Positions 1 through 5,915 of a stretch of 5,915 bases of DNA are shown here, in pieces. A program made the position numbers and the translations under genes. Numbering within the stretch: the stretch's first letter is position 1; the number at the start of each line of letters is the position of its first letter. The notes below the pieces were generated by a model, which was not told the origin of the DNA, did not search any database, and worked only from the letters and a program-made list of their open reading frames with translations. Location: IMG/VR virus record IMGVR_UViG_2585427735_000012; one strand, written 5' to 3'. Source of the DNA: a virus. Taxonomy: Duplodnaviria; Heunggongvirae; Uroviricota; Caudoviricetes.

Positions 1-5
1 ATCAG

Positions 6-33
6 TTGACCGATCCAGTGGCTGTGTAAGAAT
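6..33 (+). promoter_or_regulatory. Candidate sigma70 promoter for the transposase (-35 TTGACC 6-11; 16-bp spacer; TG 25-26 plus -10-like AAGAAT 28-33)
   Basis: Hexamer inspection only. The -35 matches consensus 5/6; the -10 is weak (4/6) but has an upstream TG. The predicted start near 40 would lie inside the 5' arm of the hairpin. Confidence 0.25.
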
Positions 34-65
34 CCGGAAACGCTCACTTGTTTCCGGATTTTTTT
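32..65 (+). promoter_or_regulatory. Terminator-like hairpin plus T-tract immediately upstream of the transposase ATG
   Basis: Perfect 10-bp stem ATCCGGAAAC (32-41) / GTTTCCGGAT (50-59) with 8-nt loop GCTCACTT, followed by TTTTTT (60-65) and ATG at 66. The structure is read from the sequence; the function is inferred. Confidence 0.5.
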
Positions 66-1394
66 ATGCACATTGGACAGGCTCTTGATCTGGTATCCCG
101 TTACGATTCTCTGCGTAACCCACTGACTTCTCTGGGGGATTACCTCGACCCCGAACTCATCTCTCGTTGCCTTGCCGAATCAGGTACTGTAACGCTACGC
201 AAGCGCCGTCTTCCCCTCGAAATGATGGTCTGGTGTATTGTTGGCATGGCGCTTGAGCGTAAAGAACCTCTTCACCAGATTGTGAATCGCCTGGACATCA
301 TGTTGCCGGGCAATCGCCCCTTCGTTGCCCCCAGTGCCGTTATTCAGGCCCGCCAGCGCCTGGGAAGTGAGGCTGTCCGCCGCGTGTTCACGAAAACAGC
401 GCAGCTCTGGCATAACGCCACGCCGCATCCGCACTGGTGCGGCCTGACCCTGCTGGCCATCGATGGTGTGTTCTGGCGCACACCGGATACACCAGAGAAC
501 GATGCAGCCTTCCCCCGCCAGACACATGCCGGGAACCCGGCGCTCTACCCGCAGGTCAAAATGGTCTGCCAGATGGAACTGACCAGCCATCTGCTGACGG
601 CTGCAGCCTTCGGCACGATGAAGAACAGCGAAAATGAGCTTGCTGAGCAACTTATAGAACAAACCGGCGATAACACTCTGACGTTAATGGATAAAGGTTA
701 TTACTCACTGGGACTGTTAAATGCCTGGAGCCTGGCGGGAGAACACCGCCACTGGATGATACCTCTCAGAAAGGGAGCGCAATATGAAGAGATCAGAAAA
801 CTGGGTAAAGGCGATCATCTGGTGAAGCTGAAAACCAGCCCGCAGGCACGAAAAAAGTGGCCGGGACTGGGAAATGAAGTGACTGCCCGCCTGCTGACCG
901 TGACGCGCAAAGGAAAAGTCTGCCATCTGCTGACGTCGATGACGGACGCCATGCGCTTCCCCGGAGGAGAAATGGGGGATCTGTACAGTCATCGCTGGGA
1001 AATCGAACTGGGATACAGGGAGATAAAACAGACGATGCAACGGAGCAGGCTGACGCTGAGAAGTAAAAAGCCGGAGCTTGTGGAGCAAGAGCTGTGGGGT
1101 GTCTTACTGGCTTATAATCTGGTGAGATATCAGATGATTAAAATGGCGGAACATCTGAAAGGTTACTGGCCGAATCAACTGAGTTTCTCAGAATCATGCG
1201 GAATGGTGATGAGAATGCTGATGACATTGCAGGGCGCTTCACCGGGACGTATACCGGAGCTGATGCGCGATCTTGCAAGTATGGGACAACTTGTGAAATT
1301 ACCGACAAGAAGGGAAAGGGCCTTCCCGAGAGTGGTAAAGGAGAGGCCCTGGAAATACCCCACAGCCCCGAAAAAGAGCCAGTCAGTTGCTTAA
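66..1394 (+). CDS. insG: IS4-family DDE transposase (InsG-like), 442 aa from ATG 66
   Basis: Open frame 48-1394; ATG at 66 is preferred over the ORF-track TTG at 48. Candidate DDE residues: D 462-464 (L-A-I-D-G), D 690-692 (T-L-M-D-K-G), E 1005-1007. The IS4-family signature Y-x2-R-x3-E-x6-K is read directly as Y 984-986, R 993-995, E 1005-1007, K 1026-1028 ([15 protein letters not shown]). Identity to E. coli IS4 InsG is from memory. Confidence 0.93.
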
Positions 1395-1407
1395 CTGACT
1401 GGCATTA
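1390..1407 (+). repeat. IS4 right terminal inverted repeat (IRR), copy A
   Basis: Last 18 bp of the element, CTTAACTGACTGGCATTA. The 11 bases AACTGACTGGC (1393-1403) form a perfect palindrome with GCCAGTCAGTT (1378-1388). Exact IR limits are from memory of IS4. Confidence 0.5.
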
Positions 1408-1442
1408 CACCCGAAGGTAGCCTGTTGTAATAAATGATTTAT

Positions 1443-2558
1443 TTAAATCCCTGCTTTTCTGAATACCTGTGCATCACGCTCACGGAGCTGCTTCAGCGTC
1501 AGCCATTCGCCTTTATCGGTGTAAAATTCATCTGGCGACATACCACCATCCCGAATCAGCTTTGCTCGGGTTTCCCCCACAATCTGTTTTTGTCTGGTGT
1601 AAGGCTGACGCAAAAACCATTCCCTGTAGGTTGTATCTCCGGCCACCACGCCATCCATGCTGGCCCGCTCAGCCGGGGAAATATCGCGAACATCAATACC
1701 CAGTTCCTTCGCTGATTTCAGAATGAACGTTTCCGTTGAGCGGCAGCAGAAATGAATTTTTCCCGGCCCCTGCAAATAAGGCACGCTGTGACCTACAGGT
1801 TTATTATTCAGCGTATATTTGAGGCGATCCCTGATTCGACATTGTGGCGTAGTACGATTATCAAGCGTTGATAACCATTGCTTACCCTTAATCAAATCAT
1901 TATTCGCGCTGGCAAAACTCTCACGGGCAGTAGCAGCAAGATGTCCAACCGCTGTTTTTGCAATGCTGGCCGCATTAGCCCGGCTCATCTGCAATGCACC
2001 ATCCTGAAATCCCTTACTGACATGTCCCCGAATTTTTCTTGCGATCTGCTCATTGGTATCCCCCAGCAAAAAACCCTGACGCACTGTATTTGTTATGCGT
2101 CTGAGCCGATCCGCCTCAAGATCTGAGGCCCACTCACTGAGCAGTCGTCCCTGGAATGGTCGCGCCATTGCAGCGGCATAAAGTGCATCAGGAGAGATAC
2201 CAACCAGAGGGTGAACATCAGCAACAAAATCAGGTAGCATAGAATCAAACAGACTTAACTGATAACCAGCCTCATAAATTGCCAGCTCGTTCAGCTCTCC
2301 GGAGAGACTGGTAAACATGCTGTTAATAGCAGTGCGGTTAACCTTTCTGACGCTCGCCAGAAGTGACTCCAGGCGCTTAACGGTAAAATTACCTGGATCG
2401 AGGCTGTCCAGTGCTATCAGCAGGCGAGCAGTAAGTTCCGCATCGCTGTCATTCAGTATTTTCACCATTCTGGCAGCCACGCCAGTGCTATAGCGGGATA
2501 TCCAGACTGCATGAGCAATTGATTCATCACGCAGCCGTTCATTCACGGTTTGCATCAT
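1443..2558 (-). CDS. Phage minor head / head morphogenesis protein, MuF-like (SPP1 gp7 family), 371 aa
   Basis: Complete ORF with ATG ATG start and SD-like GGAAAT upstream. Motifs typical of the MuF domain are read in the translation: W-L-S-T-L-D-N-R-T-T-P-Q-C-R (about 1830-1870) and G-P-G-K-I-H-F-C-C-R (about 1740-1770). It sits immediately downstream of the portal gene, as in SPP1- and Mu-type head modules. Confidence 0.82.
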   Translation of the reverse strand: MMQTVNERLRDESIAHAVWISRYSTGVAARMVKILNDSDAELTARLLIALDSLDPGNFTVKRLESLLASVRKVNRTAINSMFTSLSGELNELAIYEAGYQLSLFDSMLPDFVADVHPLVGISPDALYAAAMARPFQGRLLSEWASDLEADRLRRITNTVRQGFLLGDTNEQIARKIRGHVSKGFQDGALQMSRANAASIAKTAVGHLAATARESFASANNDLIKGKQWLSTLDNRTTPQCRIRDRLKYTLNNKPVGHSVPYLQGPGKIHFCCRSTETFILKSAKELGIDVRDISPAERASMDGVVAGDTTYREWFLRQPYTRQKQIVGETRAKLIRDGGMSPDEFYTDKGEWLTLKQLRERDAQVFRKAGI

Positions 2559-3945
2559 TGATTTCCATCAGCATTACACTCTGATTTTTTAATTCATCGA
2601 TCACTTCCTCTGGACGGGAATCCTGATCGATAAATTTCAACGCCTGCAACACCCGAACCGCATCAATCTGACGTATATCACCGCCCTGACGCAATGACTG
2701 AACAGCCAGCGCGGAGGATGAGTCAAACACCTGGGCAGATACATCCAGTTCAGTGCGCACATCCACATTGCCACCGCAACTCTCTCCGATCCATTCCGCC
2801 ATTATCTGGAGAATATTATCGAGGGCATCTTCGAGGGAGTTCGCCATTGTATAAAGCGGCGAGTTTTCCTGCATTCGCTCTTCATTAGTCTGATCAACAG
2901 ATTTGGTGGATGTATTTTCAGCACGCAGAAGTTTAGCGCCGGCATGACGCATCTGATTTTCCAGCTTCTCAAGTGATGTTTCGCCAGATTCTATCGCTGC
3001 GCCACTATGTTCAACATATTCGAGGCCATTTTTTGTTCTGTCCTCAAAAATCGTAGCGGTGGATGCACCAACCGTCAGTTCTTCATTCCTGTCCAGCCCG
3101 TAGGCCACCAGCAATGGAACGCGGGTAACATGAAGAATATTGTCCTGCTCGCTCTGGCTTTGCCAGTGCTTGATATTCAGCAAGCCAAGATTAAGCAATG
3201 GCGGTGTACCACGCATAAATCCTGTTTTCTTCGTGTACAGTGTTACCAGAGGAATATCATCACGGCTGGTATTCCATGACTCATGAAGCGTCCAGACAGA
3301 TTCGCCATTAGTGCCTTCGCTACGTCGATAAATTTCAACTCGACGGGGCATAATATGGCGGATCTGCTCCACCTTCTTCTGCCCGAAATCATCACCATCA
3401 ATAATGATGACCTCTTTTATACGCAAATCAGTGAGAACAACTTTCCCTTTTTCAACTTTCGATTTCCATCCAATAACCTGGCGTGGATTCAGCATCGTAA
3501 CGTACGGACGACCACCGGTCGCGTTTTCATCGGCTTTTGTACGAATCTCTTTCATATCCGTTCGTGGATAGTCCACCAGCGCATGTGCCACACCATACTG
3601 AAATGCGAGGCTGAAAAATTGCTGCGCCCACACATCCAGTCGGCTCCCCTCCATGTCGATATTTTCTGCATATTCCCTGATTTTTGCCGGCGTTTCCTCA
3701 CTCAATACTGTCGGCTCTGCAAATATGCGCCCAATATTTTGCTTGATGCTTTCTTCATACACAGGAAGTAGCGTAGCCACAGACAGGCGTTTTTTATAAG
3801 CGTCTTCATCTTCGTTAGGCCATTTTGGGAGATAATTTTCCCCCTGCCTGCGCATTTCAAGCGTACCGCCCATCAGTGCGTCGTTAATATCCCACGCCTC
3901 CAGCATATCGTTATAGTCGAGGTTGGGTGTTGATATATCAGCCAT
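2539..3945 (-). CDS. Phage portal protein, 468 aa
   Basis: Complete ORF between the terminase fragment and the MuF-like gene. Its stop overlaps the MuF start by 20 bp, and its ATG is 2 bp after the terminase stop (TAATTATG). Size and position match a portal; family assignment (DUF4055-like or DUF935-like) is not resolved without an HMM search. Confidence 0.72.
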   Translation of the reverse strand: MADISTPNLDYNDMLEAWDINDALMGGTLEMRRQGENYLPKWPNEDEDAYKKRLSVATLLPVYEESIKQNIGRIFAEPTVLSEETPAKIREYAENIDMEGSRLDVWAQQFFSLAFQYGVAHALVDYPRTDMKEIRTKADENATGGRPYVTMLNPRQVIGWKSKVEKGKVVLTDLRIKEVIIIDGDDFGQKKVEQIRHIMPRRVEIYRRSEGTNGESVWTLHESWNTSRDDIPLVTLYTKKTGFMRGTPPLLNLGLLNIKHWQSQSEQDNILHVTRVPLLVAYGLDRNEELTVGASTATIFEDRTKNGLEYVEHSGAAIESGETSLEKLENQMRHAGAKLLRAENTSTKSVDQTNEERMQENSPLYTMANSLEDALDNILQIMAEWIGESCGGNVDVRTELDVSAQVFDSSSALAVQSLRQGGDIRQIDAVRVLQALKFIDQDSRPEEVIDELKNQSVMLMEINDANRE

Positions 3946-3947
3946 AA

Positions 3948-4508
3948 TTAAATCCGAAGTGATGTGACTCTTCCGGTCGGTTTGACAATAGGGAATTGCT
4001 TAACGATGAAATAACCTCCGGCATCATTCGGGTGATCATTGCCAGATTTTTTATCAGGCTCCCCCTTCTCATCCCAGACCTGTTGCTCCAGAGATTCGGC
4101 ATATAACGGGCAACGCTTCACATTAACTTTATAGCGACGCTCACCATTGGCATTGCAGAACATTGCATTCATTGAGTTAACGCGATCTTTTACTGGCGGG
4201 TTCGAGCTGTTCACCACAACGTTAAAACCAGCCTGCTTAAGCTGGGCTATATCCGTCGTACTTGCGTTACTTGATTTTCTGGAATCCCCGGAAGCATCTG
4301 GATAAATATAAATTTCCCTCACTTTCCGGTAATCATTCCCATCATACAGCCAGAAGCGTTCTTTAATGATGCGGATCATATCCGGCGTATCGTAGGCATT
4401 GATGATTTCAGTTACCGCACATGGAAGCCCCAAACGCAGCACATGGACGATTCCCGCCATCTTTCCAACGTTAAAATCCATCCCAATATAAATCGGCTCC
4501 CCTGGCTG
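3948..4508 (-). pseudogene. Phage terminase large subunit, C-terminal nuclease-domain fragment, 5' end truncated by IS4 copy B
   Basis: The ORF-track Met at 4479-4481 is internal: the frame stays open upstream to the IS junction (..P-G-E-P-I-Y-I-G-M-D-F-N-V-G..). Motifs I-G-M-D-F-N-V-G, Y-P-D-A-S-G-D and D-H-P-N-D-A-G-G-Y resemble terminase nuclease-domain acidic motifs. No ATPase (Walker A/B) part is present in the window. Confidence 0.72.
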
Positions 4509-4526
4509 TAATGCCAGTCAGTTAAG
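4509..4526 (-). repeat. IS4 right terminal inverted repeat (IRR), copy B
   Basis: Mirror of 1390-1407: TAATGCCAGTCAGTTAAG on the + strand, directly abutting the truncated terminase reading frame. Confidence 0.5.
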
Positions 4527-5850
4527 CAACTGACTGGCTCTTTTTCGGGGCTGTGGGGTATTTCCAGGGCCTCTCCTTTACCACTCTCGGGAAGGCCCTT
4601 TCCCTTCTTGTCGGTAATTTCACAAGTTGTCCCATACTTGCAAGATCGCGCATCAGCTCCGGTATACGTCCCGGTGAAGCGCCCTGCAATGTCATCAGCA
4701 TTCTCATCACCATTCCGCATGATTCTGAGAAACTCAGTTGATTCGGCCAGTAACCTTTCAGATGTTCCGCCATTTTAATCATCTGATATCTCACCAGATT
4801 ATAAGCCAGTAAGACACCCCACAGCTCTTGCTCCACAAGCTCCGGCTTTTTACTTCTCAGCGTCAGCCTGCTCCGTTGCATCGTCTGTTTTATCTCCCTG
4901 TATCCCAGTTCGATTTCCCAGCGATGACTGTACAGATCCCCCATTTCTCCTCCGGGGAAGCGCATGGCGTCCGTCATCGACGTCAGCAGATGGCAGACTT
5001 TTCCTTTGCGCGTCACGGTCAGCAGGCGGGCAGTCACTTCATTTCCCAGTCCCGGCCACTTTTTTCGTGCCTGCGGGCTGGTTTTCAGCTTCACCAGATG
5101 ATCGCCTTTACCCAGTTTTCTGATCTCTTCATATTGCGCTCCCTTTCTGAGAGGTATCATCCAGTGGCGGTGTTCTCCCGCCAGGCTCCAGGCATTTAAC
5201 AGTCCCAGTGAGTAATAACCTTTATCCATTAACGTCAGAGTGTTATCGCCGGTTTGTTCTATAAGTTGCTCAGCAAGCTCATTTTCGCTGTTCTTCATCG
5301 TGCCGAAGGCTGCAGCCGTCAGCAGATGGCTGGTCAGTTCCATCTGGCAGACCATTTTGACCTGCGGGTAGAGCGCCGGGTTCCCGGCATGTGTCTGGCG
5401 GGGGAAGGCTGCATCGTTCTCTGGTGTATCCGGTGTGCGCCAGAACACACCATCGATGGCCAGCAGGGTCAGGCCGCACCAGTGCGGATGCGGCGTGGCG
5501 TTATGCCAGAGCTGCGCTGTTTTCGTGAACACGCGGCGGACAGCCTCACTTCCCAGGCGCTGGCGGGCCTGAATAACGGCACTGGGGGCAACGAAGGGGC
5601 GATTGCCCGGCAACATGATGTCCAGGCGATTCACAATCTGGTGAAGAGGTTCTTTACGCTCAAGCGCCATGCCAACAATACACCAGACCATCATTTCGAG
5701 GGGAAGACGGCGCTTGCGTAGCGTTACAGTACCTGATTCGGCAAGGCAACGAGAGATGAGTTCGGGGTCGAGGTAATCCCCCAGAGAAGTCAGTGGGTTA
5801 CGCAGAGAATCGTAACGGGATACCAGATCAAGAGCCTGTCCAATGTGCAT
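4522..5850 (-). CDS. insG: IS4-family DDE transposase (InsG-like), 442 aa from ATG (reverse complement of 5848-5850)
   Basis: Translation identical to the copy A transposase. ORF track gives 4522-5868 with a TTG start; ATG at 5850 is preferred. Confidence 0.93.
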
Positions 5851-5884
5851 AAAAAAATCCGGAAACAAGTGAGCGTTTCCGGAT
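5851..5884 (-). promoter_or_regulatory. Terminator-like hairpin plus T-tract upstream of the copy B transposase start (mirror of 32-65)
   Basis: On the minus strand: ATCCGGAAAC / GTTTCCGGAT stem followed by TTTTTT, then ATG. Confidence 0.5.
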
Positions 5885-5910
5885 TCTTACACAGCCACTG
5901 GATCGGTCAA
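5883..5910 (-). promoter_or_regulatory. Candidate sigma70 promoter for the copy B transposase (mirror of 6-33)
   Basis: Same hexamers as copy A on the minus strand; inspection only. Confidence 0.25.
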
Positions 5911-5915
5911 CTGAT

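Follow-up and report, generated by a model that had tools for sequence, protein, structure and literature searches.

An inverted pair of IS4 copies

A virus record that begins and ends in the same insertion sequence, with only a few phage genes between the two arms, raises the question of what kind of unit it represents: a composite transposon with phage cargo, two separate insertions in a prophage, a small virus genome with inverted terminal repeats, or a product of assembly. The window analysed here is the whole stretch of 5,915 nucleotides.

As the first-pass annotation had it, window positions 1-1409 and 4507-5915 are exact reverse complements of each other, and a repeat of 1409 bp cannot have arisen by chance. 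The first mismatch between the arms falls at position 1410; a looser repeat length of 1412 bp results from a search that allows this mismatch. We placed the true IS4 ends at 1407 and 4509 because the arms were aligned with full-length 1426 bp copies at three related loci (L001, L008 and L013), and the 2 bp beyond these ends (CA/TG) are a coincidental match of the flanks. Copy A differs from the full-length copies by 1 nt, and copy B (4509-5915), read as its reverse complement, reproduces 1-1407 exactly. The window begins and stops at IS4 position 20, and the terminal 19 bp of the element, TAATGCCGATCAGTTAAGG, are therefore missing from each arm.

1-1407, plus strand: IS4 copy A (IS4 positions 20-1426); IRL cut by the window edge, IRR at 1407 toward the phage segment
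48-1394, plus strand: IS4 transposase (InsG-like) of copy A; 448 aa from TTG at 48, 442 aa from ATG at 66
303, plus strand: T in place of the C found elsewhere at IS4 position 322 (synonymous, private SNP), mirrored at 5613 in copy B
4509-5915, minus strand: IS4 copy B (IS4 positions 1426-20 on the plus strand); IRR at 4509 toward the phage segment
4522-5868, minus strand: IS4 transposase of copy B, from the open reading frame list

IS4 of Escherichia coli, the insG element of K-12, is the type element of the IS4 family and a common E. coli insertion sequence. The earlier assignment of the arms to IS4 was corroborated by transposase matches to the Pfam families Nterm_IS4 (3e-33) and DDE_Tnp_1 (3e-31) and by the single nucleotide that separates the copies from the reference copies. 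The predicted protein has the same sequence as the one in L008. It is encoded by a single open reading frame and contains the DDE motif and the YREK motif, the latter as the Y-(2)-R-(3)-E-(6)-K signature that defines the IS4 subgroup (PMC2266710). Full copies in L001, L008, L013 and the contig L025, introduced below, measure 1426 bp and start with TAATGCC, in agreement with the size (1400-1650 bp) and the -AATR... termini of the subgroup; 1407 bp of each copy lie inside the window. The window copies are 1406/1407 identical to IS4 in several E. coli genomes, with which they share the one transposase gene with its two motifs, the TAATGCC... termini and the 12 bp duplications seen at related loci. 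They differ from E. coli IS4 in having T for C at IS4 position 322, a private and synonymous change, and in that the outermost 19 bp of IRL fall outside the window.

Both transposase genes read inward and the IRR ends face the enclosed DNA, as had been described. This is the geometry of Tn10 (IS10) and Tn5 (IS50), in which an inverted pair of IS4-family elements with inward transposase genes surrounds a unique segment (PMC2266710), and the likeness proposed in the first-pass annotation is confirmed at the sequence level.

The enclosed segment belongs to a Rac-like prophage

The segment between the arms, 1408-4508, is 3101 bp long and holds phage packaging and head genes, in keeping with the earlier description of the cargo.

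1443-2558, minus strand: Phage Mu-F-like minor head (morphogenesis) protein, 371 aa; Pfam PF04233 (Phage_Mu_F); L001 and L002 annotate it as 'phage minor head protein'
2539-3945, minus strand: portal-type protein (DUF4055), 468 aa; Pfam PF13264 (5e-45), and the annotation in the L001 and L002 contexts
3948-4508, minus strand: 3' part of terL, the gene for the terminase large subunit (nuclease domain), broken by copy B; Pfam Terminase_6C

The longest open reading frame in the terL fragment spans 3948-4481 on the minus strand (177 aa). Comparison with relatives of the prophage that lack IS4, a check suggested at the outset, disclosed that the segment matches, at 100% identity, a contiguous and uninterrupted Rac-like prophage stretch in many IS-less genomes, for example ECCHD184, where it has a DUF6651 gene on its left and the remainder of terL on its right. 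In the IS-less locus L002 it corresponds to positions 9001-12101 at 100% identity, within the terS-terL-portal-MuF-DUF6651-capsid synteny of a Rac-like late operon, and the same order was found in L003-L024. The intact terL of L002 crosses the insertion point of copy B; in 14EC029, terL is an annotated pseudogene. A look-up with the 177 aa TerL fragment recovered related genomic contexts, while the Mu-F protein was present in 8,620 blocks, the matches listed being long IS-free contigs only. The Rac-like defective lambdoid prophage of E. coli is known by its trkG, ydaY and ynaK neighbourhood, and trkG and ydaY are among the neighbours at related loci. The terL-portal-Mu-F block of that prophage matches the enclosed 3101 bp at 100% identity in many strains; it is uninterrupted in most strains, whereas in the window it is bracketed by IS4.

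A complete virus genome with inverted terminal repeats was considered and rejected, since the repeats are IS4 and the insert consists only of a truncated terL, the portal gene and the Mu-F-like gene.

Copy B interrupts terL at a recurrent target

Evidence on the outer side of copy B came from a second contig, L025 (IMGVR_UViG_2585427735_000015), which contains lysis genes, trkG, terS and the 5' half of terL. In L025 this half of terL adjoins the IRL end of IS4 through the 12 bp CAGCCAGGGGAG (window positions 4497-4508 in reverse complement), so that the junction reads CAGCCAGGGGAG followed directly by TAATGCCGATC..., the IRL end. Past the junction, L025 matches window positions 1-1369 at 100% identity, up to the end of the contig.

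4497-4508, no strand assigned: inner 12 bp target duplication of copy B, CTCCCCTGGCTG; outer copy beside IRL in L025

The L025 flank of 6493 bp and the window segment are both 100% identical to ECCHD184, where they overlap by exactly the 12 bp of the duplication. Joined, they rebuild an intact terL, and copy B therefore appears to be a simple insertion, on the assumption that L025 comes from the same genome. L025 and the window share the private SNP, have an identical prophage background and break at complementary points, which suggests a common origin. On that assumption, the per-copy duplication that the first-pass annotation had proposed to look for is present at copy B, with the 5' half of terL directly beyond the element, a pattern it had named as refuting the composite reading. 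Its length of 12 bp agrees with the 10-13 bp duplications of the IS4 subgroup, which has strong target-arm specificity (De Palmenaer et al. 2008, PMC2266710).

The same 12 bp lie on both sides of IS4 in L001 and L008. In 14EC029, IS4 occupies the 12 bp site of copy B in the opposite orientation, and in two NCTC-type assemblies it does so in the same orientation, with C at position 322 and a segment that differs by 47 nt. Occupation of the site in these two other settings identifies it as a recurrent target, struck by IS4 on at least three separate occasions. Derivation of copy B by a simple flip of the 14EC029 arrangement was also considered and rejected, because an inversion between IS copies keeps the same IS end against the segment.

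Copy B splits the gene for the terminase large subunit between its ATPase and nuclease domains, probably by cut-and-paste into the 12 bp site CTCCCCTGGCTG with a target duplication of its own, at a position that was hit independently in other strains. Such an insertion is expected to leave the prophage unable to package DNA. The terL site, located in a widespread Rac-like prophage, is a natural example of strong IS4 target preference, and it also illustrates the repeated inactivation of prophage packaging.

Copy A lies in a terminator hairpin loop

The inner junction of copy A falls at a terminator hairpin on the minus strand, downstream of the Mu-F-like gene. In IS-less sequence the site reads AAAAAAGGC-CACCCGAAGGTA-GCCTG.

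1408-1419, no strand assigned: predicted 12 bp target duplication of copy A, CACCCGAAGGTA, centred on the intrinsic-terminator hairpin loop

This loop is a typical IS4 target, and an IS4 downstream of yeeJ is placed in a hairpin loop with the same geometry. A consensus of AAA-N20-TTT has been published for IS4 targets; it forms no part of the evidence. IS4 favours hairpin loops between A-rich and T-rich arms, and copy A would have entered the loop just downstream of the Mu-F-like head gene, with CACCCGAAGGTA as its predicted duplication. We infer that copy A is likewise a simple insertion. Its outer side would then read ...GCAGCAATAAAAAAGGCCACCCGAAGGTA abutting TAATGCCGATCAG..., followed by the DUF6651 and capsid genes, and the native flank predicted outside its IRL is ...AAAAAAGGCCACCCGAAGGTA. 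The predicted outer junction (native flank, target duplication and IRL) had no match in IMG/VR, leaving the outer flank and outer duplication copy unrecovered there. The native left flank occurs in 53 IMG/VR contigs, in all of them uninterrupted, and none of the 53 is from genome 2585427735. The outer side of copy A could be rearranged.

Identity of the arms and the private variant

Zero divergence between the arms had been read as a sign of recent transposition or gene conversion. This reading is unsafe as it stands, because the window is probably a draft-assembly contig that breaks inside a collapsed IS4, and the identity of the arms may be a product of assembly, with one IS4 consensus placed on both ends. 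An exact match to the T322 variant was not found among the IS4 places of complete E. coli genomes (4837) or of plasmids (351), about 5,200 other copies in all, and L025 is the sole IMG/VR contig that has it. A shared private SNP suggests that the two copies are sisters, if both are real; should the arms represent a single collapsed consensus, the assignment of T322 to each physical copy would fall short of strict proof. With T322 in both copies, a local hop of one from the other would be the likeliest history, and the two presumably stand as parent and daughter.

Probably two ordinary insertions in place

Taken together, we consider it highly probable that the window is an E. coli-type draft contig in which two ordinary IS4 insertions of opposite orientation, 3.1 kb apart, sit in the late operon (packaging and head genes) of an in-place, defective Rac-like lambdoid prophage. 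The first-pass annotation had offered two independent insertions in a decaying prophage as its alternative, and this alternative is the better supported one, through the copy B duplication and the 5' half of terL beyond the element. The finding is of an ordinary kind and adds little new biology. Insertion sequences routinely ground cryptic prophages, and every composite transposon begins as two nearby insertions.

A less likely account retains copy B as a simple insertion and holds that the junction or outer side of copy A was rearranged, by duplicative inversion from copy B or by later recombination of copy A with a third IS4 elsewhere, so that the enclosed segment or the DNA beyond copy A has lost its native order. 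Simple insertion plus a flip and duplicative inversion give identical sets of junctions, which contigs cannot separate, and perfect inverted repeats of 1.4 kb are good substrates for RecA-dependent inversion. In addition, the capsid/tail side of the prophage of genome 2585427735 is absent from IMG/VR, while its lysis/terS side is present. However, this absence is weak evidence, as the window's own contig is likewise unfound there; the position of the junction is exactly that expected of a simple insertion in the hairpin loop; and the IS4-family elements studied, IS10, IS50 and IS231A, transpose by cut-and-paste and not by replication (PMC2266710). The window also resembles IS-bracketed invertible chromosomal segments, in that perfect 1.4 kb inverted repeats surround 3.1 kb of DNA and the contig mirrors itself at the junctions, so that it fits either orientation. 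It differs from them in showing no evidence of actual inversion and in having neither a dedicated invertase nor a regulated switch.

Two ordinary insertions would produce the Tn10/Tn5 geometry, and such an arrangement might in principle be mobile, or be inverted when its arms recombine. That the sister copies already form a nascent, still functional composite, able to transpose via its outer IRL ends or to flip between the arms, is very improbable in our view. If true, it would be a rare natural composite of IS4 proper with phage portal and head-morphogenesis genes, caught just after birth.

There is no sign of past movement as a unit. We consider it extremely improbable that the unit was mobilized by its two outer IRL ends and that terL' was relocated together with the portal and Mu-F-like genes; the composite transposon of the first-pass annotation is retained as architecture only. 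The inward-reading geometry with both transposase genes intact speaks for such a unit, and the outer flank of copy A is unrecovered. The bracketing of a unique segment by two IS copies is confirmed; the outer IRL of one copy is intact in L025, and the other outer end lies beyond all recovered sequence. Against it, the 12 bp at the outer IRL of copy B recur at the inner IRR side of that same element (4497-4508) instead of one duplication surrounding the whole unit, again taking L025 as the same genome. The outer flank and the segment rebuild the native terL at 100% identity, and the cargo is a non-selectable block of gene fragments. Unlike Tn10 and Tn5, the window unit has neither a sign of unit movement nor selectable cargo; one of its insertion sequences has its own target duplication in a native gene, and the block is known from one context.

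Database searches gave no second location or replicon for the unit either. With a record required to cover at least 80% of the window, the IS4-segment-IS4 unit had no match among complete E. coli genomes (5,426), plasmids (72,556) or phage records (50,697). Partial matches at 70-81% coverage were other IS4 sites with similar hairpin-like flanks, such as the one downstream of yeeJ. Both inner junctions lacked a match in the 5,426 complete E. coli genomes, in which the opposite IS4 orientation at site A was also looked for and not found. Junction A had no match in IMG/VR, GTDB-genome or metagenome (JGI) contigs; junction B had none in IMG/VR, the one set scanned for it among the viral, genome and metagenome contigs.

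Finally, we give almost no credence to a mis-join with one real IS4, or to a linear phage-like genome of small size whose inverted terminal repeats are genuine: the window ends are symmetric inside IS4 and without unique outer DNA, as in a graph-based contig, and CheckV takes contigs with inverted terminal repeats as candidate complete viral genomes (PMC8116208), but both inner junctions lie exactly at the IRR terminus beside IS4-target-like sequences, unlike a random mis-join, a single IS4 cannot supply both, and three phage genes, one of them truncated, are not a genome. L025 too breaks inside IS4, and IS4 is therefore repeated in that genome. A short contig that ends in 1.4 kb IS inverted repeats can wrongly be read as a whole viral genome with inverted terminal repeats or as a composite transposon, and the identity of the arms in such IS-ended contigs may come from repeat collapse.

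IS4 arms and the enclosed prophage segment

Comparison of the window ends confirmed a perfect inverted repeat, with positions 1–1409 being the exact reverse complement of 4507–5915 and the first mismatch at 1410; a mismatch-tolerant repeat search returned 1412 bp instead of 1409 bp by allowing that mismatch. Alignment of the arms with full-length IS4 in the annotated loci L001 (14EC029), L008, and L013 placed the true IS4 borders at 1407 and 4509, and the 2 bp of repeat beyond these borders reflect a chance likeness of the flanks. Each arm covers IS4 positions 20 to 1426, while the outermost 19 bp of the outer end (IRL), TAATGCCGATCAGTTAAGG, lie outside the window at both edges. The following features were identified:

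48–1394, plus strand: transposase ORF of copy A (arm 1–1407), Nterm_IS4 and DDE_Tnp_1 matches
1443–2558, minus strand: Mu-F-like minor head gene, Mu-F match
2539–3945, minus strand: portal-type gene, DUF4055
3948–4481, minus strand: terL 3' fragment (longest ORF), Terminase_6C
4522–5868, minus strand: transposase ORF of copy B (arm 4509–5915), Nterm_IS4 and DDE_Tnp_1 matches

Both transposases contain the signature motif used as a criterion of the IS4 family (De Palmenaer et al. 2008, PMC2266710), and by sequence the element is IS4 itself. In agreement with the first-pass annotation, the transposases read inward, with the IRR ends toward the enclosed DNA, and the cargo consists of phage packaging and head genes.

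The enclosed segment (1408–4508, 3101 bp, three minus-strand genes) matched at 100% identity a contiguous stretch of a lambdoid prophage carried by many E. coli genomes and assigned as Rac-like from its neighbours trkG, ydaY, and ynaK. In the IS-less genome ECCHD184, the segment leads uninterrupted into DUF6651 and capsid genes in one direction and into the remaining terL and then terS in the other. Judged by this alignment, the segment is a block of Rac-like prophage.

Copy B occupies a recurrent IS4 site in terL

At IS4 position 322, each arm has T (window 303 and its mirror, 5613) where four of four reference copies have C, a synonymous change. A 61 bp probe spanning T322 was matched exactly by none of the 4,837 IS4 places of complete E. 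coli genomes and by none of the 351 in plasmids, 129 Shigella plasmids included. The only IMG/VR contig with T322 (at about 6815) was L025 (IMGVR_UViG_2585427735_000015, 7,881 bp), which contains lysis genes, trkG, a ParB-like gene, terS, and the terL 5' half, followed by ...GAAGAAGTGGAG CAGCCAGGGGAG|TAATGCCGATCAGTTAAGG. Its IS4 part is 100% identical to window 1–1369 and ends with the contig at IS4 position 1388, and the 12-mer adjoining IRL corresponds to window 4497–4508 in reverse complement. The L025 flank (6,493 bp) and the window segment are each 100% identical to ECCHD184 and overlap there by exactly 12 bp. Most simply, as these matches strongly suggest, a single draft genome yielded both L025 and the window as separate contigs. 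In this reading, L025 would enter IS4 from the terL 5' side and end at a path fork, since the segment follows either IRR end, and the window path would run from the segment outward through IS4 both ways, ending where the two outer flanks part. Both window ends (1 and 5915) break at IS4 position 20 and L025 (7881) at position 1388, 19 bp and 38 bp, respectively, from the far IS4 end; the exact points could stem from a rule of the assembler or from differences between IS4 copies close to their ends.

In 14EC029, the sole carrier of its IS4/terL junction among 5,426 complete genomes, IS4 lies at the same terL base as copy B in the opposite orientation, with the 12 bp duplication CTCCCCTGGCTG. A flip of that arrangement was rejected as the origin of copy B, since inversion keeps the same IS end against the segment. 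In loci L008 and L009, IS4 lies at this site in the window's orientation, again with that duplication, and the terL 5' half adjoins the element on its outer side; their segment differs from that of the window by 47 nt, indicating a separate event. The 12-mer lies at window 4497–4508, L001 12090–12101 and 13528–13539, L008 8536–8547 and 9974–9985, and L025 6482–6493. These alignments indicate at least three independent IS4 insertions into the same 12 bp, window included. The site behaves as a natural hot spot: IS4 has entered it either way round and in more than one prophage background, with the duplication always the same.

Provided that L025 shares the window's genome, as we infer, copy B arose by simple insertion into a repeatedly used site, since it has a duplication of its own and is followed on the outside by the terL 5' half. 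For this copy, that is the pattern which the first-pass annotation had named as contradicting a composite transposon.

The terL gene of the Rac-like prophage is also broken in loci L003–L011 (around 8500–10000) by an IS5-like element (L004), IS3-family elements (L005, L010), IS4 (L006, L008, L009), or no IS at all (L003, L007, L011), and the same 177 aa C-terminal ORF remains in all of them. This variety fits a prophage under repeated inactivation.

Copy A lies in a predicted terminator hairpin

In IS-less genomes, the copy A site (1407/1408) reads AAAAAAGGC-CACCCGAAGGTA-GCCTGTTG, which on the minus strand is a predicted intrinsic-terminator hairpin, AGGCTACC-TTCG-GGTGGCCT plus a T-run, just past the Mu-F-like gene. 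The end of copy A adjoins CACCCGAAGGTA, 12 bp with the hairpin loop at the centre. Similarly, several strains (L013, L014) have an unrelated IS4 insertion downstream of yeeJ in the terminator-like hairpin AAAAAAGAGTG-CTCCGAATGGAG-CACTCTTT; its duplication, CTCCGAATGGAG (12 bp), is centred on the loop (4613–4624 and 6051–6062). Such similar flanks explain megablast matches running 20–30 bp past the IS end at other IS4 sites, for example yeeJ. The loop position and the yeeJ parallel, together with the 10–13 bp duplications and marked target-arm specificity reported for the IS4 subgroup (PMC2266710), make the copy A site look like an ordinary IS4 target.

IMG/VR did not yield the outer flank of copy A, which may have been rearranged: the predicted outer junction had no match, and T322 appeared only in L025. 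The native left flank was found in 53 IMG/VR contigs, all uninterrupted and none from genome 2585427735.

The IS4 pair compared with composite transposons

The composite-transposon reading holds for geometry, the pair being inverted with inward transposases like Tn10 and Tn5, but not for behaviour. Unlike a composite transposon, the window unit has no duplication around the whole, assuming that L025 belongs to the same genome, and no evidence placed it in more than one context. Across 5,426 complete E. coli genomes, 72,556 plasmids, and 50,697 phage records, coverage of the window by any one record did not exceed 77%. Both inner IS4/segment junctions, as well as an opposite-orientation IS4 at the copy A site, were absent from the complete E. 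coli genomes. Exact matches were likewise absent for the copy A junction in IMG/VR, GTDB species genomes, and JGI metagenomes, and for the copy B junction in IMG/VR, the only one of these contig collections scanned for it. The IS4-segment-IS4 arrangement is real but ordinary.

Zero divergence between the arms had been attributed to recent transposition or gene conversion. Should the window be a draft contig, the arms may be identical as one collapsed IS4 consensus, making their identity uninformative on age. The shared T322 is still informative: IS4 copies differing at 322 would normally break the contig there, so the two copies are probably sisters.

Studied IS4-family elements transpose by cut-and-paste (PMC2266710). 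In the most likely history, a T322 IS4 lay in terL and a sister copy then made a short-range hop of 3.1 kb into the terminator hairpin, in the opposite orientation, or the two sites were occupied in the reverse order. Simple insertion plus a flip and duplicative inversion give identical junction sets, so the present segment orientation is not readable from short contigs. The segment could flip by homologous recombination between the two 1.4 kb inverted repeats.

A virus genome with inverted terminal repeats was dismissed, the window's terminal repeats being the IS pair. CheckV uses inverted terminal repeats of ≥20 bp as one completeness signature, although its authors note that just one third of the contigs with such repeats appear complete (PMC8116208); the window shows how an IS pair can mimic this signal.

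Predicted effects and features of the IS4 ends

Copy B parts the terminase ATPase and nuclease domains, a separation that would abolish packaging. Copy A would place an IRR-end terminator-like hairpin after the Mu-F-like gene and ahead of the scaffold and capsid genes that lie downstream, and should thus be polar on the late operon.

This IRR-end hairpin (11 bp stem, window 1403–1378, minus strand) faces inward. The IRL has three GATC (Dam) sites within its first 35 bp (positions 8–11, 19–22, and 31–34; L008 8555–8581; window 12–15), overlapping a promoter-like TTGACC-16-AAGAAT (window 6–33), and the IRR end has none. The IRL pattern is reminiscent of Dam control in IS10 and IS50. A 14 bp hairpin with a T-run immediately precedes the transposase start; hairpin features lie at window 28–63 and 1378–1403, mirrored in copy B at 5853–5888 and 4513–4538. 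Together, the two predicted hairpins would keep outside transcription from reaching the transposase gene and give insertions a polar effect.
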